A DNA stretch of 64,000 nucleotides, from positions 20,901 through 84,900 of the forward strand of contig CAZBQD010000002.1 of NCBI GenBank assembly GCA_964493995.1, read 5' to 3'. The translations under genes and the position numbers were made by a program. Shown in pieces: positions 4,495 through 59,120 of this stretch (positions within the stretch are counted from its first letter, which is position 1; each line of letters starts with the position of its first letter). Source of the stretch: an uncultured Francisella sp. Lineage in GTDB: Bacteria > Pseudomonadota > Gammaproteobacteria > Thiomicrospirales > Thiomicrospiraceae. Below the pieces are notes generated by a model that was not told the origin of the DNA, did no database searches, and worked only from the letters and a program-made list of their open reading frames with translations.

Positions 4495-4504
4495 AAGTAG
4501 CCTT

Positions 4505-4597
4505 ATGACCCAACCCATCGCCCAATTCCACGAAGAAGTCGGTGAAAACTTGATGACAATTTGCAGCACCAACTTGGATCAATGCCATGTTAAATGA
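4505..4597 (+). pseudogene. Remnant of an hsdR 5' end (30-codon ORF, MTQPIAQFHEEV...)
   Basis: nt 4505-4544 match the true hsdR start at 6518-6557 at 38 of 40 positions. The first 12 codons are identical, then the sequences diverge and a stop occurs at 4595-4597. The remnant sits 10 nt after the KAP stop. Confidence 0.55.
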
Positions 4598-6521: not shown

Positions 6522-9500
6522 CACAACCCATCGCCCAATTCCACGAAGAAGTCAGTGCTAAACTGCCAGCCCTAACATTGCTAACCAATCTCGGTTATCA
6601 GTTTATCTCGCCACAACAAGCACTGGAAATGCGTGAGTCTTTATCATCGGTTGTGCTGGTCGATGTACTGCGCGAGGTATTGCAACAGAAGTCTATTGAT
6701 TTTCAGGGTAAGCGTTATCCCTTGTCCGATGCAGCCATTTACAACATTATTCATCAGCTCTCGCACCCTGCCATGAATGAAGGGTTACGCATTGCCAATG
6801 AAAAGCTGTATGACACCCTCACTTATGGCGTCAATATTACCGAATTTATCGAAGGTAAAAAGGTTCACGCCACCATTCAGCTCATCGACTGGGACGCACC
6901 GAGCAATAACCGCTTTCACTTCACCGAAGAGTTTGAGGTGCTCAATACGCACGGTATCGGCAAGCGTATCCCCGATATTGTCTGCTTTGTAAATGGCTTG
7001 CCTTGGGTGGTGATTGAAGCAAAGCGTCCCGATGCTTCACATACAGGCAAACCAACGGTTGAAGAAGGCATTTCGCAAAATATTCGCAACCAAAAAGTCG
7101 ATGAAATTCCGCATTTGTTTGCCTACGCCCAATTGTTATTAGCGGTGAATGGGCATGAAGGGCTATATGGAACTTGTGGCACACCTGCTAAGTTTTGGGC
7201 GAAGTGGAAAGAGGAACACATCAGCGAAGCCGACTTCTCGTCACTGAAAAACCAACGCCTAACGTCAGCACAACTAGAAACCATTTTTGCTCATCGAACG
7301 ACCAAGCAAAAACAAGATTATTTATCTTTGCTGGCGGGTGGTGAGTTATTGGTCACGGATCAGGATCGTTTGATTGTTGCCTTGCTAACCCCCGAACGAT
7401 TACTGGAAACGACACGCTTGTTTACGCTGTTCGATAAAAAGTCGGGTAAGATTGTCGCGCGTTATCAGCAGGTATTTGGCATTAAAGCCCTCGTTGAACG
7501 TATTTCAACCTTTGATGATAAAGGCGCACGTAATGGCGGAGTGATTTGGCATACCACAGGTTCGGGTAAGTCATTTACGATGGTATTTTTAGCCAAAGCG
7601 TTAATTTGGTTAGAAGCACTAGCCAAGTGCAGAGTGGTAGTGGTCACCGATAGAGTCGATTTAGAAGATCAACTGGCACGTACCTTTGCTTCAGGTGGGG
7701 CATTGTCGGATAAAGACAAAAAAGATGCCATGGCAACCACTGGCAAGCGTTTGGCAGAACAAATTGGTAAAGGTAACGAACGCATTATCTTCTCGATCAT
7801 TAATAAGTTTGGCACAGCAGTCGGTTTACCTGAGTGCTATAACGATAGCCCCGATATAATTGTACTGGTGGACGAAGGACACCGTAGCCAAAATGGTGAA
7901 AATAACATTCGGATGCAACAAGCCTTACCCAAAGCGGCTTTTGTTGCCTTTACAGGAACACCATTACTCAAAGACGACAAAACCGAGAATAAATTCGGGC
8001 AGATTCTTCATTCCTACACCATGCAACAAGCCGTTGCCGATGGTACGGTCACGCCCTTGTTGTATGAAGAGCGTATTCCCGAACTGAATACCAATGATGC
8101 AGCAATTGATGCGTGGTTTGATCGTATTTCGTCCCCCTTAAGCGATAAGCAAAAAAGTGACTTGAAGAAAAAGTTTGCGCAAAAAGGTCAGGTGTACCAA
8201 GCTGAAGGACGGATTGAACTGATCGCTTATGATATTTCTGATCACTTTCTGAACTTTAAGGCGTTAGGGTTAAAAGGGCAATTAGCCTGTGACTCTAAAG
8301 CCTCTGCTATTCGTTACAAGCAATTGCTGGATAAGATTGGTAAGGTGACATCGGTCGTCGCTATGTCGCCTCCCGATACACGCGAAGGACATGATGACAT
8401 AGACACAGAAAGCAGCGACTTGGTGCAAAACTGGTGGAAATCAAATGTCGGTTCGCAAGATGAAAAAGCTTATACCAAGAACATTATTGCCGCTTTTGCT
8501 AAAGAAGACGGTCCTGACCTTATGATTGTTGTCGATAAGTTGCTAACGGGCTTTGATGAACCTAAAAATACCGTTCTTTACATTGATAAACCGCTGAAAC
8601 AGCATAACCTGATTCAAGCCATTGCGCGTGTTAATCGCTTACACGCGCAAAAGCAATTTGGTTATTTGATTGATTACCGCGGCATTCTCAAGGAATTGGA
8701 TACCACCATTGCCGACTATCAAGATTTAGCCAAACGTACCCAAGGTGGTTTCGATATAGACGACTTAAAAGGTTTGTATCAGCAAATGGAAACGGAATAT
8801 AAGAAGCTTCCACGGTTATACAGCGAACTCTGGGCTGTATTTGCCGATGTGCGTAACAAGCAAGATGGTGCGGCATTGCGGGCGCATCTTGCACCCAAGA
8901 TGGACAATATTGATGGTCAGGTGGTCGATACAAATCTTAAAAAGCGTGATGATTTTTATGAAGCACTCACCAGCTTTACCAATGTGTTAAAAGTGGCATT
9001 GCAATCGGCGAGTTATTTTGACGATAAGAGCTTTGACAGTAAGCGGCAGGTGTATAAAGACACCTTAAAAATGATGGTGCAACTGCGTCAACAAGTACGC
9101 CAAGACGCCGAAGAAACAGTCGATTACGACCAATATGCTAACGACATTAAAGCATTACTTGATAAGCATATCGGTGGACTTAGGGTGTTAGAAGCGGAAG
9201 GGGTTTATCTGGTGGGTGATATGGGCATAAAAGTGCAACCCGACACCATGACAGATGAAGAGGCACGCAATAAGAAAGATGTCATTACAGGTCGTGTCAC
9301 GCGCATGATTGAACAGGACTTAGCTGATGATCCCTACGCTCAGGCTCATTTTTCTAAAATGTTGAAAGATGCCATTGAGCAAGCTAAAGCCATGTTCGAC
9401 GCACCTGTGAAGCAATATATGTTGTTTGCGGATTTTGAACAAAAAGTAAAAGACAGAAACGTCGAGGGCGTACCACAAGACAAGTTAGCAAAAATTGACC

Positions 9501-9787
9501 CATCAACCAAACGTCATGTACAGGCTTACTATGGCTTGTTTTTGAAGCATTACGAAGCGGGTTTACCGATTAGTGAAGAGAGCTGTTTTGACTATGCCAT
9601 TAAAATTGATGAAGTGGTACGAAAGTCGGTCGCTGAGTATTCCATCAATCCACAGGAAATTGAAAACCAAATTACCATTGGTCTGTTACCCCTATTGTTC
9701 CAAGACTTGGGTATCGAAAAGGCACAGGCGATCATTCACGATGTGATCAAAATTACCCGTTTAGGATTGGCGGGATACAGGGCATAA
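6518..9787 (+). CDS. hsdR: Type I restriction enzyme endonuclease/translocase subunit HsdR
   Basis: 1089 aa. Contains a PD-(D/E)xK-like nuclease motif PDIVCFVNGLPWVVIEAKRP, helicase motif I HTTGSGKSFT, and motif II VLVDEGHRSQ. Confidence 0.92.
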   Translation: MTQPIAQFHEEVSAKLPALTLLTNLGYQFISPQQALEMRESLSSVVLVDVLREVLQQKSIDFQGKRYPLSDAAIYNIIHQLSHPAMNEGLRIANEKLYDTLTYGVNITEFIEGKKVHATIQLIDWDAPSNNRFHFTEEFEVLNTHGIGKRIPDIVCFVNGLPWVVIEAKRPDASHTGKPTVEEGISQNIRNQKVDEIPHLFAYAQLLLAVNGHEGLYGTCGTPAKFWAKWKEEHISEADFSSLKNQRLTSAQLETIFAHRTTKQKQDYLSLLAGGELLVTDQDRLIVALLTPERLLETTRLFTLFDKKSGKIVARYQQVFGIKALVERISTFDDKGARNGGVIWHTTGSGKSFTMVFLAKALIWLEALAKCRVVVVTDRVDLEDQLARTFASGGALSDKDKKDAMATTGKRLAEQIGKGNERIIFSIINKFGTAVGLPECYNDSPDIIVLVDEGHRSQNGENNIRMQQALPKAAFVAFTGTPLLKDDKTENKFGQILHSYTMQQAVADGTVTPLLYEERIPELNTNDAAIDAWFDRISSPLSDKQKSDLKKKFAQKGQVYQAEGRIELIAYDISDHFLNFKALGLKGQLACDSKASAIRYKQLLDKIGKVTSVVAMSPPDTREGHDDIDTESSDLVQNWWKSNVGSQDEKAYTKNIIAAFAKEDGPDLMIVVDKLLTGFDEPKNTVLYIDKPLKQHNLIQAIARVNRLHAQKQFGYLIDYRGILKELDTTIADYQDLAKRTQGGFDIDDLKGLYQQMETEYKKLPRLYSELWAVFADVRNKQDGAALRAHLAPKMDNIDGQVVDTNLKKRDDFYEALTSFTNVLKVALQSASYFDDKSFDSKRQVYKDTLKMMVQLRQQVRQDAEETVDYDQYANDIKALLDKHIGGLRVLEAEGVYLVGDMGIKVQPDTMTDEEARNKKDVITGRVTRMIEQDLADDPYAQAHFSKMLKDAIEQAKAMFDAPVKQYMLFADFEQKVKDRNVEGVPQDKLAKIDPSTKRHVQAYYGLFLKHYEAGLPISEESCFDYAIKIDEVVRKSVAEYSINPQEIENQITIGLLPLLFQDLGIEKAQAIIHDVIKITRLGLAGYRA

Positions 9788-43058: not shown

Positions 43059-43515
43059 ATCTTTTACCCTTGTTGCTCACGCTTGTGAATGTTATTGCTA
43101 TTACAGTTGGGCAGCTCTAAAATCCCCACTTCGTGGCATTTTTAGAGTCCCAAAGTTTATTTTACCTCTGGTGGAAGGGATTAAATCAAAGGGTTGCATG
43201 TTCTTTTTTAGACCCCTTCCCCCAGACCCCCTTCACGCTAGGATTTTTAGAGGTCATTAGCTATATATACTTCGATTATATCTTAAATCAACCTAAATAG
43301 CGTTAATTAAGTGCTTTGCGCTGCATTTTATAAGATTTATAAATTGCGTATATAAAATAGTTTTATTACGTAATTAACATAAGTAGCTTTGTTGAAATAA
43401 ATCAGCAATGATAGAATGCTAAAGTTTAGCTCAATTCGACTAAGCCCACTGAGCGCAGCTCCTGCACTGAGTAACGATCATAAATTAATTGATTAACATG
43501 AGAGGTATCCTTTCC

Positions 43516-44853
43516 ATGATGAAAGATGAAGCACCTGTAATGCAAGGTCGTCGTCGGTTATTAGCCGGCAGTATTGCCACAGCCTTTGCTTATTTCACCG
43601 GTTTAGAGTCGGCTATTGCGGCACAAGAAAGCAGCAAGCCAGTCAACATTGCCATTGTCGGTAGTGGTTCTGCGGGTATCAGCATTGCTAACCGTTTAGC
43701 AAAAGCCTTACCTAATGCGAAACTGACCATCATTGATAAAAAAGTAGATCATTACTACTGGCCAGGTTTGACCCTTGTGGCAACCGGTTTGTGGTCGAAA
43801 GCAGACGTCTTACCAGGTAAAAATACCGACTTCTTACCGTCGGGTGCTAACGTCAATCTCGTTAAAGAAATGGTAACCAGCTACAACCCCGAACAAAACG
43901 AACTGACCACCGATGCCGGTCAAACCATTAAATATGATTACCTTGTCGTCACCAGTGGTATTGAATACAACTACGAAGGCATTGAAGGCATGGATGTGAA
44001 CGCGATTGGCAGCAACGGCTTGACCAGCGTTTACCACAGTCCCGATATGGCAGAAAAATCTTGGCAAGCGATTAGTGAATACAGCAAGAAGGGTGGTAAG
44101 GGTATTTTCACTTTGCCATCGACCCCGATTCGTTGTGCTGGTGCGCCACTAAAAATGACCTTCTTAACGCTCGATCAGTTAAAGCGTAACGGTGGTTTCG
44201 ATAAAGCGCAAATGAACTTCTACTCATCAACCGGTGGAGTGTTTGGTTTGCCTTGGTTTAACGATTTTGTCATTAATCGTTTCAAAGAAAACAACATGGA
44301 CGTGAAGCTGAAAACACAACTGAAAGCTGTTGATGTTGCGAAGCGTGAAGCCACCTTCAGCACTGAGGATGGCACGGCACTGACCACCAGCTATGACCTG
44401 TTACACGTGGTTCCACCCATGCGCGCGCCTAAGTCGGTTCGTGAATCTGACTTGTCTTGGAAAGAAGGCGGTTTTGCCGGTGGTGGCTGGCTAGCTGTCG
44501 ATAAAAACACCTTACAACACGTTAAATACGACAATGTTTTCGGTTGTGGTGATGTGAATGGTACGCCGCTGGGTAAAACCGCAGCTACGGTCAAAATGAG
44601 TGTGCCGATTGTGGTTGCTAACTTGTTAGACACCATTGCTGGCAAAGAGCCCAGTGCTAAGTTTAATGGCTACACTTCGTGTCCGTTGATCACTCAAATT
44701 GGTTCGGCCATGCTAATCGAATTTGATTACGACAAAAATCTCATTCCTACCTTTAGCTTCATTAATCCACAACAAGAATCTTGGTTCGCGTGGATTATGA
44801 AAGAGCAAATGCTCAAGCCTGCTTATTTAGGCATGCTCAAAGGCAAAGTGTAA
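43516..44853 (+). CDS. sqr: Type II (SQOR-like) sulfide:quinone oxidoreductase with a twin-arginine signal
   Basis: FAD motif IAIVGSGSAGIS. Catalytic Cys contexts PIRCAGAP and GYTSCPLIT resemble mitochondrial-type SQOR. A Tat-like sequence, QGRRRLLAGSIATAFA...AIAAQE, is present. The start is ambiguous among 43489, 43498, 43516 and 43540. Confidence 0.8.
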   Translation: MMKDEAPVMQGRRRLLAGSIATAFAYFTGLESAIAAQESSKPVNIAIVGSGSAGISIANRLAKALPNAKLTIIDKKVDHYYWPGLTLVATGLWSKADVLPGKNTDFLPSGANVNLVKEMVTSYNPEQNELTTDAGQTIKYDYLVVTSGIEYNYEGIEGMDVNAIGSNGLTSVYHSPDMAEKSWQAISEYSKKGGKGIFTLPSTPIRCAGAPLKMTFLTLDQLKRNGGFDKAQMNFYSSTGGVFGLPWFNDFVINRFKENNMDVKLKTQLKAVDVAKREATFSTEDGTALTTSYDLLHVVPPMRAPKSVRESDLSWKEGGFAGGGWLAVDKNTLQHVKYDNVFGCGDVNGTPLGKTAATVKMSVPIVVANLLDTIAGKEPSAKFNGYTSCPLITQIGSAMLIEFDYDKNLIPTFSFINPQQESWFAWIMKEQMLKPAYLGMLKGKV

Positions 44854-47256: not shown

Positions 47257-48192
47257 TTATTCTTGCTGCATCAGACGGCGCAGATTCTCTTCGCGATCGG
47301 AACGGTCGTATTTAGCGGTGGTATTGGCATTGGCATGACGAGCTAGGGCTTGAACATCGCGTAGTTTGTGACCTTCATCTAACAGGTGGGTAATGCGCGA
47401 ACGGCGCATATCGTGAGGGGCTAAACTACTAGGGTCAATTCCCGCCAATAATGCAGTTCGTTTGAGTATGTCTCGTATGGCGACGTCACTCAGGGCTTGA
47501 CTGGCATCCAGTTGTCCACCTTTGCGAATGCGACAAAGGAGTGGACCTGGCTTCTGTCCGCGTATGGCTAACCAGGCTTGTAGATTTTGTTCAATTTCAT
47601 CACCATAAGGTAATTCAGCTTCTTTATTGCCTTTGCCAACAAAACGAATAATGCGACGTTGCTGATGAATGCTGGCAAGTGTTAATTTGGCGACTTCAAA
47701 ACGTCGTAATCCCAGTAAATACAATAAATTAAATATCAGTTTATCGCGAATTAGGGTGGCATTATGTGGCAGTTGCGCTTGTGTTGCGCGCATGGCGGTT
47801 AATTCCTCGTAGGTAATTTCTCGACCCGCAGGCAAGCGTTGAATTTTCTTAAATGGAATGGCTTTAATGCGAGCATAAACATCGCCATCCATATTGCCCA
47901 ATAACCATGCATTTTTGGCAACACCACGCACTAAGCTAATGACTTGATTGAGATAACGCTCTGATTTATTGGCATCTTGCAGACGCAACAAAGCTGTGAG
48001 CACATCATCAACCGTGAGCTGGTTCCAATCGATGGCATCTAATGAGCGGCTTTGACCGCCAGTTAAAGCTTCGACAAATGCCGGCGCGGCGGCACGTAAA
48101 TAGCCTTGACGAGAGCTGGTCGAAACGCTACTTAAGTAAGCGGTTAAGGGATTGGCTTGTGCGGTCGCCGGTAAAACAGTTGCTGAACTCAT
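47257..48192 (-). CDS. Tyrosine site-specific recombinase (phage integrase family)
   Basis: The catalytic pattern is present: R (GLRRFE), K (GKGNKE), HxxR (HDMRRS), H (ARHAN) and Y (TAKYDR). Confidence 0.85.
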   Translation of the reverse strand: MSSATVLPATAQANPLTAYLSSVSTSSRQGYLRAAAPAFVEALTGGQSRSLDAIDWNQLTVDDVLTALLRLQDANKSERYLNQVISLVRGVAKNAWLLGNMDGDVYARIKAIPFKKIQRLPAGREITYEELTAMRATQAQLPHNATLIRDKLIFNLLYLLGLRRFEVAKLTLASIHQQRRIIRFVGKGNKEAELPYGDEIEQNLQAWLAIRGQKPGPLLCRIRKGGQLDASQALSDVAIRDILKRTALLAGIDPSSLAPHDMRRSRITHLLDEGHKLRDVQALARHANANTTAKYDRSDREENLRRLMQQE

Positions 48193-48307: not shown

Positions 48308-49477
48308 TTATCTTCGCACTAATAATACCAACACTTCAGCATGTTGTGTATGGGGAAACATATCAAACACCCGCGCATGAATCGGCTTGAACTGATGCAG
48401 CCGTTCCAAGTCTTGCGCTAAGCTATTCGGATTACAACTGGAATAAATGAGCTGAGTTGCCGTTGTTTCATTTAGGAATGCACATAAGGCTGCACCAATA
48501 CCGCGTCTGGGCGGATTGACGATAATACAATCTGGCGTGGCGTCGATGGCTGTGTGGGCAAAATCATCAGCTGTTAAGGCTCGAAACCGCATTCGATTTG
48601 ATAAGCCAAGTTGCTCCGCACTGCGTTGAGCACTGTTTATGGCATCGGCGTTGATTTCAATACCGGTTACATTTCCCTGCATTACTTGCGCCGCATGTAA
48701 AGCAAAGCCACCGACACCACAAAACAAGTCCCAGAGTTGATTCGGCTGACTTTCGGCAATCCAAGTTTGTGCTTGTGCGTAAAGTTGAGCGGCAACGGCT
48801 GAATTGGTTTGAAAAAAACTGCGCGGATGACAATACAAAGGTAATCCATTCAACCAATGCGTCAGAACCTTTTGTTCCGTCAACACGATTTCTTGCTCAC
48901 CTTCGACAATTGCCGCTGGCAAGGGTTGAATATTGACCGACACCACCGCTAGCTTTGGCATGGCTTTCATCAGTGCGGGCAAATGCTGTTGAATGGCGGC
49001 TATGGCTTGAGTCGATCGTAACACAAACCGACACATCAGCGCATGGGTCTGTTCATCTATGCTGACAATGACGTACTTTAACTCGCCTTGACGTTGAATC
49101 ACGTCATAAGGCATGAGCTTCACCTGTTGAATCCAGGCTCGGATTGGTTCAAAAGTGGATTGTAATTCAGCAGGATATAAAGGACAGTTAACTAAGTCAT
49201 GAGCCTGAAATTGCCGATCCAGCAGTCCCAGTATTGGTGCTTGCCAATGACCACTGACCACCATTTTGGCTTTGTTACGAAACCCCTTAATGGCACTTGG
49301 CACCAGCGGCAACCAGTTGATGTCACAAGAAAACTGAGACAAAATCGCTTCAACATCAGCCTGTTTTTGCTCACATTGTTGCAGGTAACTCAAGTCTAAT
49401 TGCGTACAGGAACGACAAATGCCTTGCTCGTAATAACCACAATTCAGTTGATTAGCCAAAAGAAAGACCACCTGCAC
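48308..49477 (-). CDS. rlmC: 23S rRNA (uracil747-C5)-methyltransferase RlmC (RumB)
   Basis: Close resemblance to E. coli RlmC throughout (GFRNKAKMVVSG, CPLYP, GELKY, FFQTN, WDLFCGVGGF, NPPRRG, FDMFPHT). The GTG at 49477 overlaps recD by 26 nt, and a TTG at 49459 is an alternative start. Confidence 0.85.
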   Translation of the reverse strand: MQVVFLLANQLNCGYYEQGICRSCTQLDLSYLQQCEQKQADVEAILSQFSCDINWLPLVPSAIKGFRNKAKMVVSGHWQAPILGLLDRQFQAHDLVNCPLYPAELQSTFEPIRAWIQQVKLMPYDVIQRQGELKYVIVSIDEQTHALMCRFVLRSTQAIAAIQQHLPALMKAMPKLAVVSVNIQPLPAAIVEGEQEIVLTEQKVLTHWLNGLPLYCHPRSFFQTNSAVAAQLYAQAQTWIAESQPNQLWDLFCGVGGFALHAAQVMQGNVTGIEINADAINSAQRSAEQLGLSNRMRFRALTADDFAHTAIDATPDCIIVNPPRRGIGAALCAFLNETTATQLIYSSCNPNSLAQDLERLHQFKPIHARVFDMFPHTQHAEVLVLLVRR

Positions 49478-51254
49478 GTTGTACGGAGCGCCCTACCGCT
49501 GTAAATAATGGCTGAGGATCGGCGCACGCCAAAATAAATTGATGCTTGGCGCGTGTGATGGCAGTGTAAATGAGTTCCTTGGTCAAAATGGGGCTATCCT
49601 GATATGGTAACAATAAACAAACTCGATTAAATTCAGAGCCTTGCGACTTATGTACGCTCATCGCATAAGCATCTTCTAGGTGAGACAAACGGGCGGGCAG
49701 AATCCAACGAATCCCCTTCTCGGTGGCAAAAGCGACACGCAAGCCTAACCTGGGATGAGACAAACATAAGCCAATATCCCCATTCATCAAATTTAGAGTG
49801 TAATCGTTGCGGGTGACCATCACCACTCGACCGGCTAGCCATGGCGCCGAATCTAGCCCCAACCACTTTGCCATACGCTGATTCATGGAGAGCAGACCCC
49901 AGCGCCCTTCTCTCACCGCGCATAATAATTGAAACTCACTTAATTGACCAAGACATTTTTTTGCCCAATCATCAGCATCCTGCTCTTTAACTGCTTCATT
50001 TACCATGACTTTTAGGCTGTGCCACTGAGTTAAAATCAGCTGTTTGAGCGCTTGCGTGTCATAGTCATGAATGGCTAACGCAACCACCGCCTCATTTGAG
50101 TTTTTCTGCCACGCAGCGAGTGATTTATAAGCGGTTCTCACCGACTTAACGGCTTGCTGATTCACCCAACCAGCCCACTGACCAATGGCGCTACTGGCAT
50201 CGAAACGGTGCGAATGACGCAGCATAATCGTTTGTTGCGCTAACCCGCTTCCCCTGAGCGAACAATAAGCCGCCGGCAAGTGTTGACCCGCATAGGCTAA
50301 CAACCACTGCTGAGTTTCTGACGAATAATGTCCCTGCTCAGCTCCATGGCACAACTGACCTAACACAGCGCCCGCATCAACCGAGGCGAGTTGATCTTTA
50401 TCGCCTAATAAAATGAGCCGTGTTGTCATGGGTAATTGTGTTAATAATTGCGCCATCAGATGCAAATCAATCATAGAAGCTTCATCGACAATAAAGCAAT
50501 CGCATTGTGTTAGCTCATCACTAGCCAGCCATTTATGCAAGGTTTGTGCCAGCGTGGGTAAATTGAGCTGAAACTCTGCGGGTAATTGACCGATTGCCTG
50601 CTGAATCGAAGAAGCCAATCGGGCGGCGGCTTTACCCGTTGGGGCAGATAAGCCAATACGTAAGGATTGCGTTGTTGTCGAGGTTTGCGCCAAACGTTGC
50701 AAGGTGGCTAACAGGCGCACGACGGTTGTGGTTTTACCCGTGCCCGGTCCACCGGTGATAATCGAAAAGGAAGCGCGTGTTGCCAAAGCGCAGGCGATAA
50801 CTTGCCAATTAGGCTCATTCGCATCAGTGCTATTATTCGGAAACAAGGCTGCTAACCAAGCGATTAATACGGTTTGATTGTCATCACGCAATGCCAAGCG
50901 CTGTTGAACATTCAGTTGAATCCTTTGTTCATCCAGCCAAGCACGTCGCATATAAAGTCGATTATCTTGCCACACTAGCGGACTCGATTCGTCATCGGCT
51001 TGCCACCAGGAACACTGATGCTGTTGTTCTGACCAAGTAGGACTTAACCGACTTTCAGACACGCCATGAGTATGATGGATGATCAGGCTGGTGATGTATT
51101 CGTCTAACAGTAAGCAAGCATGACCGGCACGGTAGGCATGACTGGTGAGTGCCGCCAGTAACCAAGCATCGGGGTGTGCGGCGGCTTGTCGCTGTAATAG
51201 ATGCGAGAAGGCCTCATCGACGGCATTTAGATGAATGTGCTTTAGCTGGGTCAT
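49452..51254 (-). CDS. recD: Exodeoxyribonuclease V alpha subunit RecD
   Basis: Walker A GGPGTGKTTTV, Walker B FIVDEASM, and the C-terminal motif VHKSQGSEF. The start overlaps the recB stop as ATGA. Confidence 0.9.
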   Translation of the reverse strand: MTQLKHIHLNAVDEAFSHLLQRQAAAHPDAWLLAALTSHAYRAGHACLLLDEYITSLIIHHTHGVSESRLSPTWSEQQHQCSWWQADDESSPLVWQDNRLYMRRAWLDEQRIQLNVQQRLALRDDNQTVLIAWLAALFPNNSTDANEPNWQVIACALATRASFSIITGGPGTGKTTTVVRLLATLQRLAQTSTTTQSLRIGLSAPTGKAAARLASSIQQAIGQLPAEFQLNLPTLAQTLHKWLASDELTQCDCFIVDEASMIDLHLMAQLLTQLPMTTRLILLGDKDQLASVDAGAVLGQLCHGAEQGHYSSETQQWLLAYAGQHLPAAYCSLRGSGLAQQTIMLRHSHRFDASSAIGQWAGWVNQQAVKSVRTAYKSLAAWQKNSNEAVVALAIHDYDTQALKQLILTQWHSLKVMVNEAVKEQDADDWAKKCLGQLSEFQLLCAVREGRWGLLSMNQRMAKWLGLDSAPWLAGRVVMVTRNDYTLNLMNGDIGLCLSHPRLGLRVAFATEKGIRWILPARLSHLEDAYAMSVHKSQGSEFNRVCLLLPYQDSPILTKELIYTAITRAKHQFILACADPQPLFTAVGRSVQRAGGLSFG

Positions 51255-54200
51255 GGTAATTCACTCGAAAAAATCTGTGATAGCCTTTCTAACTCAGCTA
51301 AGCTGGGCTTAGAGCGCCAAATACCCTGTTGCGGCTGTTGCGCATCGGCACCCCTTATGAACCAGTAAATGGCTCCCCCCATGTGCTGCTCATAATCATA
51401 ATTCGCTAAACGAGTTGATAATAAGCGGTGTAATGCCAACACATACAGCATGGCTTGCACATCGTAACGGTGGGACAGAATGGCTTGTTGACACGCCTTA
51501 TCATCGTAGCCATGGGCTAGTTTATTGGTTTTATAATCGAGCACATAATAGCGTCCCTCATGTTCAAAAACCAAATCCATAAAACCGGTCAATAAACCAC
51601 CCAAACGTTGATACGAGAGCTTGGGTCGATCCACGCCAGCCAACACCATAGTGCTGACGGCGTCATCAATCGCTTGACTATGCGATTGCGCCAGAGGTAA
51701 GGTGAAACTCATTTCACACCAAAAAGCCCCTTGAATTAGCTGATTCAGACTCAAGGGTGCTGTGTTCGATTCCGCCGCTAGCAGGCAAATGGGATGCTGT
51801 GCCAAAGTTATTAACCATTGGTGAAAATCTGGTTCAAAGGTTAAAGCTAATTGATGATAAGTCAGTTGTTGTGACCAGAAACGCGACCAAAAGTCGGTAT
51901 CGGCATGGGTTCCCTCTAGCAGCATGGTTTCTAACGCTTGGTGCATTAAATCACCGACTCCCGCTCCTGCTGGCAAGTCTTGCCAAGGGGTTTCGATGGC
52001 GGCGAATTGAAACAGCGGTAGGTCACGATGACCCACATCATCCTCATCACTTTGAGTCTCTTCTAACTGATCTTCCAGTAAGCGAAACTCACTAGCGTTG
52101 ATGCGCTGGGCATCGAGTCGTTGTGTTAAGCGTGAATAGCTGCTCACTTGCCAATAGGGCCAGTTGCGTGATTTAGGAAGCAAAACCATTGAGTGACGAG
52201 CGAGTGGTGGGTCATGAGTGATGAACTCAGACGTTTTTTCAGACGTTTTTTCAACCGCTTCGACTAAGGGTTCGCACTGAATGCCCGCGGTGGCTGACCA
52301 AGGCTTAAAAGCTTCTGCCCAAAGTGTTTCGTCATCGCCACGACGATCTCCTGCCAATAAATAACCCAAGGCGCTTTCATAAAAACCGGCACTTTGTGCG
52401 CTCGATTTCAGTCCTGCCACCCCTAACCACAAAGCATGACTGGCACGCGTTAAGGCCACATAAAGCAAGCGAATCGACTCTTGCCAATCGAGTTCACGCT
52501 CTTGATCATCGGTTACTTGTCTTTTATTCATACCCAAAGTCATGGCAAAGGGTAAGAACACCAAGGGATATTCAAGGCCTTTCGATTTATGAATGGTAAT
52601 GATGGTTATGCAAGAAGCATCACTTTCCAATCGCACCAAATGTTCTTGTGCTGTCGAGGCCTGCGGCTGACTGATATGCGAGGCTAACCAGCGAATCAGC
52701 GCCACACGCCCTTCTCGCTCTAATGAGGCTTGTTGAAGCACTTCCGCCAAATGCAATAAGTTAGTGAGTTTGCGCTCACCTTCCACCTGTTGTTGCCAAT
52801 AGTGTGCAATGCCTTGTTCGTGCATGAGCCGATACAGCATCGCCAGAACACCCTGATGTTGCCAGGTATCGCGCCACGATCGAAAACGCGTCACCCATTC
52901 ATCCCATGCGGCTTCATCATCTTTTAAGCTATCCAGCTCGGTTAACGAAAAAGCAAAGCTGCGACTGGCTAAAGCCGCTTTAATGGCACGGGTCGATTCC
53001 GGTTCATGCACTGCCCGTAACCAACGCCAAACATCCAAGGCTTCTTCGCTAGTCAGCACACTTTCCTTGTCCGATAAATAAACACTGGGAATACGTTTTG
53101 CTCTTAACGCCTGTTGAATGTTGATCGCTTCAGTGCGGTTTCGTACCAACACCGCGATATCTTTCGCTTCGAGGGATTGAAGTGCTTGCTCTGTGGCGAA
53201 ACCGGTGTCTGCACTGCTCAGTAAGCAAGCAATTTCATCTGCACACTGGACCGACATCTCCGTTAAGTAGCGCTCTTTAGTGACACATTGACCCGCTGCT
53301 AGCTTCCACAAGGTGATGGCGGCTTGATCTTGCCCCGCCACTTTCAAACTCGGGAGTGGCTTGCCCGCACTGACTTCGACAAAGGCAATCGGGTTTTCAT
53401 CCCCTTGCCGAAATTGAAAAGCGCCTTGTGGATGGCTTTCTGCCAGCTTAAATAAGGCATTAACAGCCGAAATGACTGACTCACTGGAGCGGAAGTTTTG
53501 CGTGAGTGTGTGGTGATGCTGTGCATCTTTTCTCGCCCGTAAATAGGTGTCCATATCGGCACCGCGAAAACGGTAAATCGCCTGTTTGGGATCACCAATC
53601 ATCAGCAACAGGCAATCATCGCGCTGCTGATATAGGGGCATTAAACAGCCATATTGCCAAGGGTCGGTGTCTTGGAACTCATCGACCAGTGCAACGGGAA
53701 ACTGCTTGCGAATGGCATTGGCTAGGGCTTCGCCCGCCTCTCCTTGCAATGCTTGATAGAGCTGTTGCAACAAATCATCGAAATCGAATAGTCCGTCACG
53801 CTGTTTGGCTTGCTGATACAAACGAGCGACCTCAAAACGGGCATGCTCAAGCAAGGCTGATTGATACTCAGGCTCTTGTTGCAACAGGCGCACATAGTTT
53901 GCCATGGCATCAAAAGCAGGATGTTCAGGCGCTTTACCTTTTACACTGGTAATAAAACCACCGCTACTCACCGCTGTCAGTTGTTTTATAGTCGGCGCAT
54001 TATGGCCTGTTTGCAACCAATTCAGTAATTGATTAAACCAACCTTCTTGATAATTTCTACCGTTGAGTGCTTTACTGGCTTTAGCTGCGTTAATTAAAGC
54101 CGTAACCTCATCTGTCCACAGCGTTTGAAGTTGCTTAAAACACGCGGTCAGTTCAGCTTGCCAGGCTAACCAAGGTTCAAGCGCTTGGCTGGGTTCGATC

Positions 54201-54850
54201 ATTGCGACCGAGTGATGAAGAGAAGCATCGGGTTTAGCCTGCTGAGCGTTAATCTGAGCCAACAAATCCTCTGGATTGCTTGCCCATGCTTGCACAGCTC
54301 GAATGGCATCAGGCTTGAGCGCATAATAAACTTGGCGCCAATAGCGCTTGCAAGCGGCTAATTTGAGTTGATGCGTGTCTTCAACCAAGGTTTGCTCAAA
54401 CAGCGATAAGCTATCGAAAGCGTGCTGTCGCAACATGCGACTCGCCCAGCCGTGAATGGTAAAAATAGCCGCTTCATCCATCCATTCAATGGCTAAACTC
54501 AGTTTTTGCACACAGAGTTCGTAAGTTTCAGGCGCAAACTCGTTCAACAGAGCGGATAACAAAGAGTCGTTGCTGTTCCCTTGCTCAAAAGCCCACTTGG
54601 CTTCCTGTAAACGCAAGCGAATACGCTCACGCAATTCCGCCGTTGCCGCTTCGGTAAAGGTCATGACCAAAATGTCGGGCGGCAACAAGAGGCGTTCGCC
54701 TTGGTCGAATAGCTGTTGATGCCCTAATACCAAACGCAGGTACAAGGCAGACAAGGTGTAGGTTTTACCCGTACCCGCACTGGCTTCGATCAGTTGTTGA
54801 CCTTGCAGCGGCAAGGTTAAGGGGTTGAGGTTGGTTGCAGTGAGTGTCAC
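51251..54850 (-). CDS. recB: Exodeoxyribonuclease V beta subunit RecB
   Basis: 1199 aa with UvrD-like motifs ASAGTGKTYTL and VDEFQDTD, and a C-terminal nuclease domain (GFMDLVFEHEGRYYVLDYKTN). The start codon is GTG. Confidence 0.92.
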   Translation of the reverse strand: MTLTATNLNPLTLPLQGQQLIEASAGTGKTYTLSALYLRLVLGHQQLFDQGERLLLPPDILVMTFTEAATAELRERIRLRLQEAKWAFEQGNSNDSLLSALLNEFAPETYELCVQKLSLAIEWMDEAAIFTIHGWASRMLRQHAFDSLSLFEQTLVEDTHQLKLAACKRYWRQVYYALKPDAIRAVQAWASNPEDLLAQINAQQAKPDASLHHSVAMIEPSQALEPWLAWQAELTACFKQLQTLWTDEVTALINAAKASKALNGRNYQEGWFNQLLNWLQTGHNAPTIKQLTAVSSGGFITSVKGKAPEHPAFDAMANYVRLLQQEPEYQSALLEHARFEVARLYQQAKQRDGLFDFDDLLQQLYQALQGEAGEALANAIRKQFPVALVDEFQDTDPWQYGCLMPLYQQRDDCLLLMIGDPKQAIYRFRGADMDTYLRARKDAQHHHTLTQNFRSSESVISAVNALFKLAESHPQGAFQFRQGDENPIAFVEVSAGKPLPSLKVAGQDQAAITLWKLAAGQCVTKERYLTEMSVQCADEIACLLSSADTGFATEQALQSLEAKDIAVLVRNRTEAINIQQALRAKRIPSVYLSDKESVLTSEEALDVWRWLRAVHEPESTRAIKAALASRSFAFSLTELDSLKDDEAAWDEWVTRFRSWRDTWQHQGVLAMLYRLMHEQGIAHYWQQQVEGERKLTNLLHLAEVLQQASLEREGRVALIRWLASHISQPQASTAQEHLVRLESDASCITIITIHKSKGLEYPLVFLPFAMTLGMNKRQVTDDQERELDWQESIRLLYVALTRASHALWLGVAGLKSSAQSAGFYESALGYLLAGDRRGDDETLWAEAFKPWSATAGIQCEPLVEAVEKTSEKTSEFITHDPPLARHSMVLLPKSRNWPYWQVSSYSRLTQRLDAQRINASEFRLLEDQLEETQSDEDDVGHRDLPLFQFAAIETPWQDLPAGAGVGDLMHQALETMLLEGTHADTDFWSRFWSQQLTYHQLALTFEPDFHQWLITLAQHPICLLAAESNTAPLSLNQLIQGAFWCEMSFTLPLAQSHSQAIDDAVSTMVLAGVDRPKLSYQRLGGLLTGFMDLVFEHEGRYYVLDYKTNKLAHGYDDKACQQAILSHRYDVQAMLYVLALHRLLSTRLANYDYEQHMGGAIYWFIRGADAQQPQQGIWRSKPSLAELERLSQIFSSELP

Positions 54851-54852
54851 AG

Positions 54853-55095
54853 TTATTCATTAACAAATTTAAAGTAATTTCTTTCTTTGCCTTCTTGCAA
54901 TAAAGAAAGAATATCACTTTCGGAAAGGCCTAAGTCCACCCCTTCAACACTTAGCGGCGATTGTTTTGGCGGCACTGGTGTGATGTAGAATGAATCCCCA
55001 TCTCGACGGCTAATGCAAATAACCCCTTCCTGTTTAGCCGTATCTAACACGAATGCTAGGTTTTGTCGTGCTTCTGTAAAGTTGTATTGTTTCAT
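54853..55095 (-). CDS. Phd/YefM-like antitoxin
   Basis: The N-terminus MKQYNFTEARQNLAFVLDTAKQEGVICISRRDGDSFYITPV fits the Phd/YefM pattern. GGAG lies 8 nt upstream of the ATG at 55095. The gene starts 1 nt after the PIN stop and ends 2 nt before the recB start. Confidence 0.65.
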   Translation of the reverse strand: MKQYNFTEARQNLAFVLDTAKQEGVICISRRDGDSFYITPVPPKQSPLSVEGVDLGLSESDILSLLQEGKERNYFKFVNE

Positions 55096-55096
55096 T

Positions 55097-55489
55097 TTAA
55101 TACTCCAATAAGGGAATGCCCATGTCACCAGCCACTTGTTTTAATGCGTTATCCAAGGTTAACAATCGGCTATTGGTTTGTTCAGCACATTGTAATAAAT
55201 AAGCGTCATATGCATAAATTCCATGACGTTGGCATATTAGTAAAGTTCGTTCCAGTTGAACATCAATAAAACGAATTGAAATGGATTTGTAAGATTCCAA
55301 TGCCATTTCTGCCTGATTTAGTGAAATGGCGCGACGCTTAAACATCGCTGAAAAAGCGTTACCAATTTCCCAATGAACCGAAAGTGGTGCGACCAAATGA
55401 GCGCCCTGAGTTGCTGTAACGAGCCTGATTTTACTGGTTTCGTTTCCAATCACGGCAATGAGAGCTGATGTATCGATAGTGACCAACAT
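55097..55489 (-). CDS. vapC: PIN domain (VapC-like) toxin
   Basis: 130 aa with PIN acidic residues in the expected contexts: IDTSALIA, HWEIGNA, AYDAYLL and TLDNAL. Confidence 0.75.
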   Translation of the reverse strand: MLVTIDTSALIAVIGNETSKIRLVTATQGAHLVAPLSVHWEIGNAFSAMFKRRAISLNQAEMALESYKSISIRFIDVQLERTLLICQRHGIYAYDAYLLQCAEQTNSRLLTLDNALKQVAGDMGIPLLEY

Positions 55490-55512
55490 GGGGCTGTTCC
55501 TTTTAAGCGCTT

Positions 55513-55545
55513 TAGCTTAAGTACATATGTACAATTATAGCTTAA
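55513..55545 (-). promoter_or_regulatory. Candidate TA promoter/operator: perfect palindrome GTACATATGTAC flanked by direct tagcttaa repeats, with TATAAT adjacent
   Basis: The palindrome is at 55521-55532. tagcttaa occurs at 55513-55520 and 55538-55545. A minus-strand TATAAT (plus-strand attata, 55534-55539) sits 1 nt upstream of the palindrome. A TTGACT lies 22 nt further upstream, which is non-optimal spacing. Confidence 0.45.
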
Positions 55546-55568
55546 TGACTTAATGAGCGCGAGTCAAT

Positions 55569-58500
55569 TTACTCACTGATCATTCTCTCCAACATCACCC
55601 CATAAAGCCGTTGAGCTAACTCAGCAAACTCTGGCTGTAATTCATCAAAAGTGGCAAAACAGCGTTGTAATTCCAAGGATTCTGCCCGCTCTCCTGCATG
55701 GTTGAACCCGCCTTCAAAGGTCTTTCTTGCTTCAGCAAGGGCTTTGCTTTGCAAGGCGGCTAAATCGGCTGTTTCATCTTTCTGTTTGGCTTGCTGCTGT
55801 TGTAAGCTCTGCACATAAGCGATGCCGCTTTTGCAAGCGACCTTAAGCGGTTGTTGCCAGGCTTGTTGATAGCATTCAACATAGCCTTGTAAATACAAAC
55901 GTGCTTCTGTTGGCGCAAGGGGTTGAAAACGAATCATCGCATCCGTTGCCAGAATAACACTGGTCACCGGCTGTGCTAAGGCATTGGCTAAACAATGTGC
56001 TAACCAGGCATCGATGAGTTTGTAGGCTTTAATCACCTTGTCTTTTTGCAGCTCACCGGGCACTAACTGCACCACACACTGCTCATTTTGTTCATTGGCA
56101 TAAAGCAAATCGAGCTGACCCGTTAGGGTCGTATTGGCTAGGGTTAACGACAGGGGTAAAGGTGCTAATCGCTGCGTGTAAGGGGCGATGACTGTCTGCC
56201 AAGTCTGCCACAACTGCTCGCTGGTTTGTTCTAATTGCTGTTGGTGCAGTTGAGCGAAGCCTGCTAAGGGTAAGGTGCCGCTCAGTTGCCATGGCAGCGC
56301 ATCGGCTCGACCGGTTGCTAACCAGTGTTCGATTTGTTGTTGATAGTGTTGATGTTGTTGCAGTGGATTGATAGAAAATAGCTCATCATCCCGCTCATCT
56401 TCTTGTGGTTGTGTCAGTTTAATGCCTAATCGGTGGCGCAATAGCACCCGCTGCGGATGACGCAACACCGCACTCAGCCGAGACAAGGCGAGCGTGGTGG
56501 GTAGGGGTTCGTCGGCAAGGCGCACCTTCGCCCAATCCGGGTCGGTTATGATGTCGTTTTTCTCGCCTAACCAGTCCGTGGCGTAACTTTGCACTCCTGA
56601 ATCCGTTTGCACATAGCGCTGTGAAAAAGGTTGTAACGGATGTTGTACCACCGTTAAAGGTGGTGTCCAAAGTTGATGGCAATAATCGATAAACTGCGAA
56701 ACCAATATGCTGGGGGCGCGGTGTTGATCGTCACGAATGCTGCGTCCAGTCCAGCTCAGATAGAGTTGTTGCCGCGCCGATAAAATCGCTTCTAAAAATA
56801 AATAGCGGTCATCATAGCGGCGAGACCTGTCCCCCGCTCGCCACTGCCCTGCTAAGGCCATTAAATCAAAGTCTTGTTTCACTTGTTGACGGGGGTAATC
56901 GCGCTCGTTTAACCCAATCAAGCAAATCACTTTGAAGGGAATGGCACGCATTGGCATGAGGGTGGCAAATTGCACCCCACCCGATAAAAACGGGCGCTGT
57001 AAACTCTGCGCATCATCAATGTTGTCTAGCCATGCTTTAGCAACCACCGACAAAGGCAATTTCTGTTGAAACTGCCCCAACTCACAAGCCGATAACCAAC
57101 GATTCAAGCCGCTACGAAATCGCGTCAACCATCGCTGACTAGCAAGATCATGAGACTCATCAAAAAAGAGCTGTAACACTTCTTCTAAATAACAGCCCCA
57201 GATCGCCGGCGGTAATTCATGACTCAATAAGGCTTGCGCAATCCGAATCGCTTTCAACCATTCAGCTAAAGCACCTAATAAATCCGCTGATGATCCGGTT
57301 GCAGCGGAGGTTGGTAAAATCGACTGCCATGCCAAGCCTGTCTCTCCACAAGCGTAACCCAGTAGCAATCGATCTAAGCCAAATAACCAGCTATTAGCAT
57401 TGATTCCTTGCGGTAACTGGTGGCGTTCGCTTCTGTCGTTGGCATCTAATCCCCAGCGGACGCCGGCTTTTAATAACCACTGATGCAGGCTTTCCACATC
57501 GGTTTCACTCAGCTGAAATTTGGCTTTAACGGCGTCTAATTCGAACATAGCGTGCCAATCACTCAGGCCAATATCGGCCGTTGGCAAGGTTAATAACCAT
57601 TGCAATAATTGCATCATCGGTTCGATGCGTAGGCTGCTGTCGGCAATGGAATAGGGAATGTAGCGCTTGTCTTTAGCGGAAAGTCGTCCAAATACCGAAC
57701 TCACTGCAGCGGCAAATTGATCCACATCGGGCATCATCACCATCACATCAGCAGGGGTTAAACTCTCATCGGCATCAAACAGCGCCAAGAGATGATCGTG
57801 TAACATTTCCACTTCGCGCTGCGATGAATAGCCAGAGCGTAAACAAATGGAATCATCCTGTGCTCTTGCTTCTGGCTCATTGGGTGGCGGCGTTAACTGT
57901 AAGATATGCCGTTGTAATTCGGCTAGCCGCGTGTTGTCAATCGGTTCGACAAACACATCGACACGCTGAAACCAATGCTGATGGCTGGGTGTTTCATCAA
58001 ACTCATTGAGTAACTGCACATAATCCTTGCCCTGTTTGCCCCATGCGGCCAATAAGGGATGAAAACTCGCGTAGTCTTCCTGCAAAGCCTTAAGCGGCAG
58101 GCCTTGTTTAATGGCGTGTCGTTGCGCTTTCATCAGTTGATTTCGACGCCAATAGCGCGCGTCTTGCACATCGCCCCAATAATATTGACAAGGATTATTG
58201 ACAAACAATAATACCTGAGCCACTTTCGCCATCGTCGATAAGGCTTCGAGGGTTTGTTGCGGCAAGCTACTGACACCAAAAACGACAATGCGCTGCGGCA
58301 GCTTCACCGATGACAGCCTTTGCTCTTGCCTCATCTGTTGCACAAATTGATCGTGCACACTGGCACGAGAGCTCAGAGAAGGTCTTAGACCTTCTATTTC
58401 TGTTTCTTGGTTGGTGGAAGGGATCAAATCTATGGATTGCATATCATTATGGTGCAGCCCTTCCCCCAAGCCCCTATCCCTTTGTATTTTGGAGAGTTGC

Positions 58501-59120
58501 CCTAAGTTTTTTTGCCCATTCGTTTCAATATCGCGCTGCAAATCGCGCCATAGAGCCGCTTGCCAGGTATTTTCATGCAAGGGGCTACTCTCAGCTTGTT
58601 GGTTGGTGATCTGATTGAGCCCCTGTGACCAATCAGCAATCCAGTCGGCTCGATAGGTTTGATATTGATCGTATAAATCGGCAATTTGCGACGCTAACTG
58701 AAAACGTCTTTCCGCGGCTTGTTCATTTTGTGCTAAATAATGTCTTAACGGCTGATAAACTTCGTCATCACTGGCTAAAATCGGATCTAACAAGCGGTGA
58801 ATGCGCCAGGTCAGCGGAGCTTTATCAAAAGCCATCTGCTTAGGAACTTGCTGACCGCCTAATACCTGTCGATAAGCGCGCCACAAAAACTCGCTCGGTA
58901 GGTAAAGTTCGACCCCCGCGCTCACGCCCAGTTGCTGTGCCATCGACTGCACCAACCATTGTTTCATGCCATTGCTTTGTACCAGTAGCACTTCGGGCGT
59001 TAAGGGCGGAAGCGGATGCGCTTGCAACCAAGACAACATGACATCGCGCAGGTCTTCCATGCGATTACCATGCACGATCACCAAACCCGGTGTTAAACGT
59101 GAAGCTGCAGAGGGGTTCAT
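55569..59120 (-). CDS. recC: Exodeoxyribonuclease V gamma subunit RecC
   Basis: 1183 aa. The N-terminus LVIVHGNRMEDL...LLVQSNGMKQWL is typical of RecC. It lies in a cluster with recB and recD. Confidence 0.9.
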   Translation of the reverse strand: MNPSAASRLTPGLVIVHGNRMEDLRDVMLSWLQAHPLPPLTPEVLLVQSNGMKQWLVQSMAQQLGVSAGVELYLPSEFLWRAYRQVLGGQQVPKQMAFDKAPLTWRIHRLLDPILASDDEVYQPLRHYLAQNEQAAERRFQLASQIADLYDQYQTYRADWIADWSQGLNQITNQQAESSPLHENTWQAALWRDLQRDIETNGQKNLGQLSKIQRDRGLGEGLHHNDMQSIDLIPSTNQETEIEGLRPSLSSRASVHDQFVQQMRQEQRLSSVKLPQRIVVFGVSSLPQQTLEALSTMAKVAQVLLFVNNPCQYYWGDVQDARYWRRNQLMKAQRHAIKQGLPLKALQEDYASFHPLLAAWGKQGKDYVQLLNEFDETPSHQHWFQRVDVFVEPIDNTRLAELQRHILQLTPPPNEPEARAQDDSICLRSGYSSQREVEMLHDHLLALFDADESLTPADVMVMMPDVDQFAAAVSSVFGRLSAKDKRYIPYSIADSSLRIEPMMQLLQWLLTLPTADIGLSDWHAMFELDAVKAKFQLSETDVESLHQWLLKAGVRWGLDANDRSERHQLPQGINANSWLFGLDRLLLGYACGETGLAWQSILPTSAATGSSADLLGALAEWLKAIRIAQALLSHELPPAIWGCYLEEVLQLFFDESHDLASQRWLTRFRSGLNRWLSACELGQFQQKLPLSVVAKAWLDNIDDAQSLQRPFLSGGVQFATLMPMRAIPFKVICLIGLNERDYPRQQVKQDFDLMALAGQWRAGDRSRRYDDRYLFLEAILSARQQLYLSWTGRSIRDDQHRAPSILVSQFIDYCHQLWTPPLTVVQHPLQPFSQRYVQTDSGVQSYATDWLGEKNDIITDPDWAKVRLADEPLPTTLALSRLSAVLRHPQRVLLRHRLGIKLTQPQEDERDDELFSINPLQQHQHYQQQIEHWLATGRADALPWQLSGTLPLAGFAQLHQQQLEQTSEQLWQTWQTVIAPYTQRLAPLPLSLTLANTTLTGQLDLLYANEQNEQCVVQLVPGELQKDKVIKAYKLIDAWLAHCLANALAQPVTSVILATDAMIRFQPLAPTEARLYLQGYVECYQQAWQQPLKVACKSGIAYVQSLQQQQAKQKDETADLAALQSKALAEARKTFEGGFNHAGERAESLELQRCFATFDELQPEFAELAQRLYGVMLERMISE

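Follow-up and report, generated by a model that had tools for sequence, protein, structure and literature searches.

A toxin-first PIN–Phd gene pair between recC and recB, probably a tolerated selfish toxin–antitoxin cassette

The gene pair, its family and the predicted operator

The DNA analysed here is a 64-kb stretch (the window, to whose full length all coordinates refer) of contig CAZBQD010000002.1 from an uncultured gammaproteobacterium. Between the RecBCD genes recC and recB it carries two small genes with the features of a type II toxin–antitoxin (TA) pair. recC, the two small genes, recB, and recD all lie on the minus strand, where the gene order is GGDEF sensor, recC, a 79-nt gap, a PIN gene, 1 nt, a Phd-like gene, 2 nt, recB, recD, and an rlmC-like gene. 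The gene order, coordinates, and junction gaps of the initial annotation were all re-checked and are correct on this strand. The first gene of the pair (55097–55489, ATG start) encodes a 130-residue PIN-domain protein of the VapC type, and AAGGA, its Shine-Dalgarno sequence, ends 9 nt 5′ of the ATG. The second gene (54853–55095, ATG start) encodes an 80-residue protein of the Phd/YefM type and has a GGAG Shine-Dalgarno sequence 7 nt 5′ of its ATG. The 79-nt gap (55490–55568) reads as the regulatory leader of the cassette: it contains a perfect 12-nt palindrome, GTACATATGTAC (55521–55532, on both strands), a perfect −10 hexamer, TATAAT, 1 nt upstream of the palindrome (55534–55539), and two TTAAGCTA direct repeats, one promoter-distal (55513–55520) and the other overlapping the −10 hexamer (55538–55545).

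The PIN protein matches the Pfam family PIN (PF01850) with an E value of 5e-10 and a score of 40.5 bits (cut-off 23.6). Its acidic tetrad, D6, E41, D95, and D113, is invariant in an alignment of 16 sequences, whose homologues are 58–95% identical. The AlphaFold2 model computed from that alignment has a pLDDT of 95.5, and a Foldseek search placed the archaeal proteins PAE0151 (TM 0.77) and PAE2754 nearest to it, with M. tuberculosis VapC toxins, Rickettsia felis VapC2, and FitB among the further matches; TM values for all matches were 0.6–0.77, at 13–23% sequence identity. A sequence search of the PDB returned PAE0151 as the sole match (E 1.5e-4). Since this is the only match by sequence and the structural neighbors are so dissimilar, the PIN subfamily is distant from any characterized VapC. 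The protein also scores far under the cut-off of the NCBIfam VapC model.

The assignment of the second protein draws on its family. The window copy scores 28.5 bits against PhdYeFM_antitox (PF02604), slightly under the cut-off of 29.8, and all 25 family members examined match the same domain at E ≤ 0.001 (best E value 1.9e-9). When compared with known structures, the family profile matched YefM (2A6Q) with an E value of 1.1e-5 and Phd with an E value of about 0.05. The C-terminal half is conserved in the family as SPLxVEGVDL..I..L.EG.ER. Most members are 72–76 residues long, and the window copy has 80 because the position of the usual family stop codon, TAA in the sister locus L001, is occupied by AAA (54868–54870); the reading frame therefore runs on for five additional codons (KFVNE) and a stop (54853–54870) to end 2 nt before the recB GTG. 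This stop-to-Lys change shortens the distance between the Phd stop and recB from 17 nt to 2 nt, and it may be either neutral or adaptive. Both open reading frames (ORFs) of the pair are full length and contain all invariant family residues. Taken together, the Pfam matches, the acidic tetrad, the VapC-like model, and the YefM profile match support the original call of a toxin-first PIN/Phd-like TA pair. By sequence and predicted fold, the pair is a PIN/Phd type II TA pair with the toxin gene first, in which the first product would be toxic and the second would neutralize it.

Homologues of the PIN protein form 2447 clusters in the protein collection, and relatives were found in 443 species-representative genomes. 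The main carriers of the family are Thiotrichales and other marine or sulfur-cycle Gammaproteobacteria, Zetaproteobacteria, Chloroflexota, and Bacteroidota. Gene neighborhoods were compared at the best 80 loci among these relatives, and the locus counts given below refer to this set; comparison loci are labeled L001, L011, L094, and so on. A Phd homologue lies directly 3′ of the PIN gene in 77 of the 80 loci, and the remaining three are cut by a contig end. The toxin-first order is thus a family rule and not a local oddity. The PIN and Phd genes of most loci either share 4 nt or 1 nt or are separated by 1–3 nt. The canonical antitoxin-first order of vapBC is seen neither in the window nor across the family, so the deviation concerns the order of the parts and not the parts themselves. 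The reversal relative to vapBC, pointed out when the locus was first annotated, is correct and extends to the whole family.

The pair resembles VapBC systems, such as those of M. tuberculosis, Rickettsia felis (VapBC2), and Neisseria (FitAB), in having a PIN-fold toxin of about 130 residues with four acidic residues, a small, putatively DNA-binding antitoxin encoded in the same bicistronic unit, and a palindromic operator, here predicted, at the promoter. It differs from them in that the toxin gene precedes the antitoxin gene and in the low identity of its toxin to solved VapCs (13–23%). With YefM-YoeB, Axe-Txe, and Phd-Doc it shares the PF02604 antitoxin domain and a GTAC-core palindrome, the putative operator, at the −10 element; however, the partner is a predicted PIN RNase instead of YoeB/RelE or Doc, and the antitoxin gene comes second. 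A 2016 review gives the toxin-first order in type II systems only for higBA, mqsRA, hicAB, and rnlAB (PMC4803016). The present pair has the gene order of these four systems, but its toxin and antitoxin folds are unrelated to theirs. The domain combination itself is on record, as Makarova et al. (2009) counted 285 neighboring PIN-PHD pairs (PMC2701414); the gene order and the operator of this subfamily are not described in the available portion of that study.

The palindrome GTACATATGTAC is the only match in the 64 kb at up to one mismatch, with an expectation of 0.09 in shuffled sequence (8 of 100 shuffles contained at least one match). Its position in this 79-nt gap and its recurrence across the family are a stronger argument than its rarity. 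Indeed, the exact palindrome is present in 44 of the 80 family loci and a version with one mismatch in 11, always 13–24 nt upstream of the PIN ATG, and a −10-like hexamer stands directly 5′ of it in family members. Distant members have another perfect palindrome, GTACAATTGTAC. In 43 of 54 family loci, a T(G/T)TACA box occurs 29–34 nt upstream, where a −35 element is expected; this box is missing in the window copy, in the sister locus L001, and in the nearest relatives, L003 and L014. YefM represses its own operon via TGTACA-core palindromes that cover the −10 element (PMC1802561). Judged by its conservation and by analogy with YefM, GTACATATGTAC is very probably the operator of the Phd-type antitoxin. 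Unlike the YefM operator, with its paired L and S sites, the window copy has a single 12-nt palindrome, and an inverted-repeat search of the gap found nothing beyond this core. The significance of the TTAAGCTA direct repeats is doubtful, since they have no conserved counterpart in the sister species L001, which weakens the reading of the gap as an autoregulatory region. Palindrome, TATAAT, and repeats had been put forward together as typical of TA autoregulation: all of these sites are present and the position of the palindrome is conserved family-wide, but the repeats are not maintained.

Three loci of the family deserve mention in their own right. In Leucothrix pacifica and related contigs (L006:5632–6021; also L007–L009 and L016), a conserved 129-residue ORF without a Pfam match lies 6–7 nt 3′ of the Phd gene, and that branch of the family may use it as a third component. 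Among PIN relatives outside the clade of the window, that of L003 (L003:4925–5622, 72% identical) is the closest; its gene lies 76 nt 3′ of a nirD-like (Rieske_2) gene in a string of nitrite-reductase and siroheme genes; such a co-oriented position after an operon gene is atypical for the family (1 of 57 loci). Finally, in the 5.3-kb contig L073 the PIN gene is near the end (4772–5158), whereas the Phd gene that matches it is found at the contig start (14–244); this contig may be circular or end in a repeat.

Insertion site and history of the cassette

Relatives of the organism were found by RecC similarity. Its clade is small and known only from Logan assemblies and one metagenome-assembled genome (GCA_964646525.1), and the RecC of the window shares no more than 50% identity with any sequence from beyond the clade. 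Four outgroup lineages, L012/L013, L094, L095, and L096, whose RecC proteins are 73%, 73%, 70%, and 50% identical to that of the window, respectively, have no insert, and their recC and recB genes share a 4-nt ATGA overlap. The comparison with L094 defines both ends of the insert. RecC of L094 ends in ..ERMLSE*, which shows that the C-terminus in the window, ..ERMISE*, is native, and recB of L094 has the same RTGACA start. Because L094 matches both the RecC ending and the recB start of the window, the insert comprises exactly the 718 nt (54851–55568) that separate the recC stop codon from the recB start codon. The recC stop is TAA in the window (55569–55571) and, in the outgroups, a TGA that overlaps the recB start. 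According to the junction alignments, the recB GTG at 54850 occupies the native start-codon position. It is also the sole possible start ahead of the conserved NLNPLTLP motif, because an in-frame TGA lies two codons 5′ of it.

The GC content of the insert is 0.40 as compared with 0.49 in recC and recB, and its GC3 is 0.33–0.34 as compared with 0.48–0.49. This AT-rich composition and the patchy distribution of the cassette suggest that it is foreign in origin and was horizontally acquired. The initial annotation had offered, as its fallback, a selfish addiction module that landed in a permissive gap. A selfish landing fits the data best, but there was no pre-existing gap, as the target was the 4-nt stop/start overlap itself. 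A target-site duplication (GAAT), considered with L012 as the empty site, was rejected because L094 shows that both ends of the insert are native sequence. A tyrosine recombinase gene (Phage_integrase, E 7.5e-24), which may be XerC/XerD-like, lies just 3′ of the rlmC-like gene (47257–48192). Since it is also present in L012/L013, relatives that have no TA insert, it is not linked to the insertion.

At least 23 contigs contain the exact PIN sequence of the window. Ten of them, from 10 different sequencing runs, were inspected and all show one and the same layout, so the pair is fixed in the species of the window. ERR12717845 and SRR10083287 are examples of samples in which the locus is present. 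A sister species, L001/L002, whose RecC is 83% identical in amino acid sequence and 79% in nucleotide sequence, also carries the pair. Its left junction is the same as in the window, with the recC stop codon followed by ATTGACTCGC. Its Phd protein has the usual length, 75 residues, and 9 nt further on ATGACAGCA represents the recB start. The 35 nt that follow Phd in L001/L002 had also been considered as unrelated DNA or a repeat, a possibility rejected once the alignment identified ATGACAGCA as the recB start. From this alignment, L001 most likely has the same layout as the window, with a 9-nt spacer before recB.

The locus L011 presents a different picture. Its recC is 96.9% identical to that of L001 at the nucleotide level, yet the TA genes are absent. 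Between recC and recB stands instead a 2.9-kb segment (L011:10300–13400) that carries, on the reverse strand, a GGDEF-EAL gene encoding 872 residues and that replaces the last ~11 codons of recC through the first ~5 codons of recB. The recC/recB junction has thus been rearranged at least twice within the clade, once by the TA insert and once by the replacement in L011. The simplest history suggested by these sequences would be a single insertion before the two species separated, after which the cassette was kept in one of them and remained polymorphic in the other.

Interpretation of the locus and its relation to RecBCD

We interpret the locus as a selfish TA cassette of type II, about 0.72 kb long, that is tolerated inside the recBCD operon, a reading to which we assign a probability of roughly 0.77. 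Of the explanations raised at first annotation, the fallback of a selfish module is the one that best fits the comparative data. The pair is an uncharacterized new member of the known PIN–Phd class of type II TA systems, found in an unusual but explicable place. According to this interpretation, the cassette would have inserted once, exactly at the 4-nt recC/recB stop/start overlap, in the ancestor of the two species. From what is known of the two families, the first gene would encode a VapC-type PIN endoribonuclease, and the N-terminal domain of the Phd/YefM-type antitoxin would dimerize and bind DNA while its C-terminal half would attach to the toxin and inactivate it. The antitoxin, probably with the toxin as co-repressor, would bind GTACATATGTAC; because this palindrome abuts the −10 hexamer, such binding would repress the cassette's own promoter. 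If antitoxin synthesis stopped, the longer-lived PIN protein would cleave RNA and cause growth arrest.

The arrangement of the junctions offers an explanation for why such an insertion could be tolerated. A search of the coding strand around the PIN/Phd pair found no terminator-like site. The cassette is co-oriented with the operon and terminator-free, and 2 nt separate its end from the recB start. Transcription of recB and recD is therefore expected to run through it, as read-through from recC and possibly with a second start at the TA promoter. The missing terminator and the 2-nt spacing between the Phd stop and recB hence support the earlier suggestion that recB/recD expression passes through the TA locus. 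No Shine-Dalgarno sequence was found upstream of the recB GTG, so recB translation is presumably coupled to termination on the Phd gene. In the outgroups the genes are coupled through ATGA, and in the window the recB GTG follows the Phd stop by 2 nt; the coupling was therefore probably passed from recC to Phd, and ribosomes that terminate on the antitoxin gene, formerly those that terminated on recC, would re-initiate on recB. Read-through and the hand-over of ribosomes to recB would account for the tolerance of the insertion, but they are not proof that the pair serves RecBCD.

Several observations weigh against the interpretation as a selfish cassette. First, the cassette is less diverged than recC between the two species (window 55097–55568 compared with L001:3280–3983): its nucleotide identity is 0.85–0.94, against 0.70–0.79 in the last kilobase of recC; identity at four-fold sites is 0.74 for PIN and 0.59 for Phd, against 0.50 for recC; and the pair is 95% identical in amino acid sequence, against 83% for RecC. 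Simple vertical descent does not predict so low a divergence, as estimated from these sequences. A recent homologous exchange that included the flanks is argued against because the raised identity stops short of the recC flank; possible explanations are that the cassette is strongly constrained, that its codon usage is AT-biased, or that it was replaced later on. The cassette is either younger or under more constraint than its flanks. Second, the pair is fixed in the species of the window and its Phd stop has moved next to recB, both of which are compatible with some co-option. Third, the evidence of mobility is indirect. No mobility gene, attC-like site, target duplication, or flanking repeats were found at the insert, and a tblastn search of 72,556 plasmid and 50,697 phage records retrieved no PIN homologues. 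The mobility of the family is suggested solely by its patchy distribution and composition. Fourth, with the T(G/T)TACA box of the family missing, it is doubtful that the window copy has a promoter of its own. Indeed, no canonical sigma-70 promoter was scored in the 79-nt gap, since no −35 element stands at 16–18 nt and the sole TTGACT (55562–55567) lies 22 nt from TATAAT; given the missing −35 region, expression of the cassette may rely mainly on read-through from recC. Lastly, literature searches found no experimentally characterized member of this PIN–Phd subfamily, and the solved structure nearest to the PIN protein is only 23% identical to it.

Fixation in one species, retention in the second, conservation above that of recC, and the stop-to-Lys change are thus compatible with co-option, although the ordinary reading of a selfish cassette remains. 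One form of co-option, which we regard as unlikely, is that of a regulatory module: the toxin would be incidental, and the antitoxin, operator, and promoter would provide a second, autoregulated input for recB and recD that uncouples their dosage from that of recC. The perfect −10 hexamer and the operator upstream of PIN-Phd-recB-recD would suit such a role, as would the C-terminal extension, which leaves 2 nt between the Phd stop and the recB GTG (9 nt in L001), and the lack of a Shine-Dalgarno sequence before recB. However, the promoter has no usable −35 element, and L011 and all outgroups manage without the module. Moreover, the toxin is not decaying, since its catalytic residues have been kept and neither ORF is disrupted, with both under purifying selection (95% amino acid identity, against 83% for RecC). 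A further version is slightly harder still to credit: in a co-opted cassette, silencing of the operon would stop antitoxin synthesis and free the PIN protein, so that the pair acts as an alarm on RecBCD expression, or else the antitoxin and its operator would tune RecB/RecD dosage.

The initial annotation favored another role, in which the pair guards RecBCD: it would sense phage inactivation of RecBCD or shut-off of the operon and respond with PIN-mediated growth arrest, so that its position would be functional. Such a role predicts an association with recBCD elsewhere, and the family was surveyed from both sides. On the PIN side, recB, recC, or recD was not found within 8 kb of any of the 80 other family loci. 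Tight wedging between co-oriented neighbors on both sides was seen in 1 of the 57 family loci with enough flanking DNA; wedging into operons as a habit of the family was accordingly rejected. On the RecC side, a small sample of about 70 informative metagenomic recC–recB junctions (RecC 35–42% identical) was inspected, and in about 68 of them the two genes abut (−19 to +35 nt) free of any insert. The remaining two are not alike, as one lacks recB within 5 kb and the other is L162. In this unrelated recBCD locus, a reverse NAPRTase gene and a two-gene pair occupy the recC–recB junction (L162:10531–12852). The pair encodes a 102-residue nucleotidyltransferase and a 178-residue protein, overlaps by 4 nt, lies about 110 nt upstream of recB, and weakly resembles the MntA/HepT type VII TA system (E 0.007 and 0.05).

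The guard role is, on this evidence, very unlikely. In its favor, the pair is interlocked with recB without a terminator and across a 2-nt gap, occurs in every one of the 10 contigs sampled from the species, is kept in a second species, and is more conserved than the flanking recC; in addition, the unrelated junction L162 has its weakly MntA/HepT-like pair right before recB. Against this stand the lack of recBCD genes near any of the 80 other family loci, the empty site in four outgroup lineages, the loss of the pair by replacement in a strain whose recC is 97% identical to that of a carrier, and the uninterrupted state of nearly all other recC–recB junctions surveyed. The PADLOC defence models matched neither the PIN nor the Phd protein, and neither of these small proteins has a part suggestive of RecBCD binding or sensing. 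Furthermore, the protein inhibitors known to block RecBCD target the enzyme itself and not the expression of its operon. What these small samples reveal is essentially a lineage-restricted insertion, with no PIN/Phd recurrence in recBCD contexts, a pattern that the initial annotation itself had taken to count against a guard; literature searches for TA pairs inside recBCD operons found nothing relevant. The idea that the pair is an inactive relic, a decaying TA pair carried along by the operon and no longer working, is the least credible of all, for although the family's upstream operator/−35 box is lost and the C-terminal end of the antitoxin is altered, both ORFs are full length with all invariant family residues, the cassette is more conserved than recC between the two species, and the identical sequence recurs across many samples.

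Known systems provide points of comparison for the locus. In E. coli, ptrA lies between recC and recB and does not abolish the RecBCD genes. The window is similar in that an unrelated gene unit occupies the recC–recB junction, but ptrA is a 2.9-kb protease gene and the insert here is a TA pair, and the ancestral state in this clade is a 4-nt overlap. Retron Ec48 causes growth arrest upon RecBCD inhibition and is not encoded inside recBCD. Its resemblance to the pair is confined to the guard concept put forward in the initial annotation. Unlike this retron, the present locus contains no reverse transcriptase or non-coding RNA, and no recurrent association with recBCD was found.

The locus would represent a clean natural case of a selfish two-gene cassette that dropped into a translationally coupled overlap of an important repair operon and was tolerated there. 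For TA research, it draws attention to a large and strongly conserved PIN–Phd family with a fixed toxin-first order. It also yields an operator prediction, namely GTACATATGTAC abutting the −10 element, often with a TGTACA box at −35, in an arrangement that resembles YefM operators. If co-option were true, the locus would show a new wiring of a growth-arrest module to RecBCD expression.

Neighboring genes and other features of the window

The genes that flank the cassette are readily identified. recC (55569–59120), which encodes the RecBCD gamma subunit, matches the Pfam families Exonuc_V_gamma (E 6e-89) and RecC_C (E 1e-33), and it overlaps the GGDEF sensor gene by 4 nt. recB (51251–54850) contains the Pfam domains UvrD-helicase, UvrD_C, and PDDEXK_1. 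recD (49452–51254), with RecD_N, AAA_30, and other Pfam domains, overlaps recB by 4 nt; its overlap with the rlmC-like methyltransferase gene is 26 nt when the longest ORF is taken and 8 nt with the gene call in L010. RecC has 1183 residues in the window as compared with 1135–1150 in relatives. Relative to L001, about 130 nt (~44 residues) are additional at window positions 58300–58600, roughly residues 175–275, and an alignment with other RecC proteins has no invariant columns between residues 197 and 251.

A search of the whole window against Rfam found no known RNA families. At 1889–9787, the window contains an apparent type I restriction-modification locus, in which a 1089-residue ORF (6518–9787) matches HsdR (TIGR00348, E 7e-135) and several co-oriented ORFs lie upstream of it (1889–6521). 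A further ORF (43489–44853) resembles a type III sulfide:quinone reductase (E 3.5e-57, under the model cut-off). This ORF, together with the occurrence of the closest PIN relatives in Thiotrichales, hints at a sulfur-oxidizing lifestyle of the organism.

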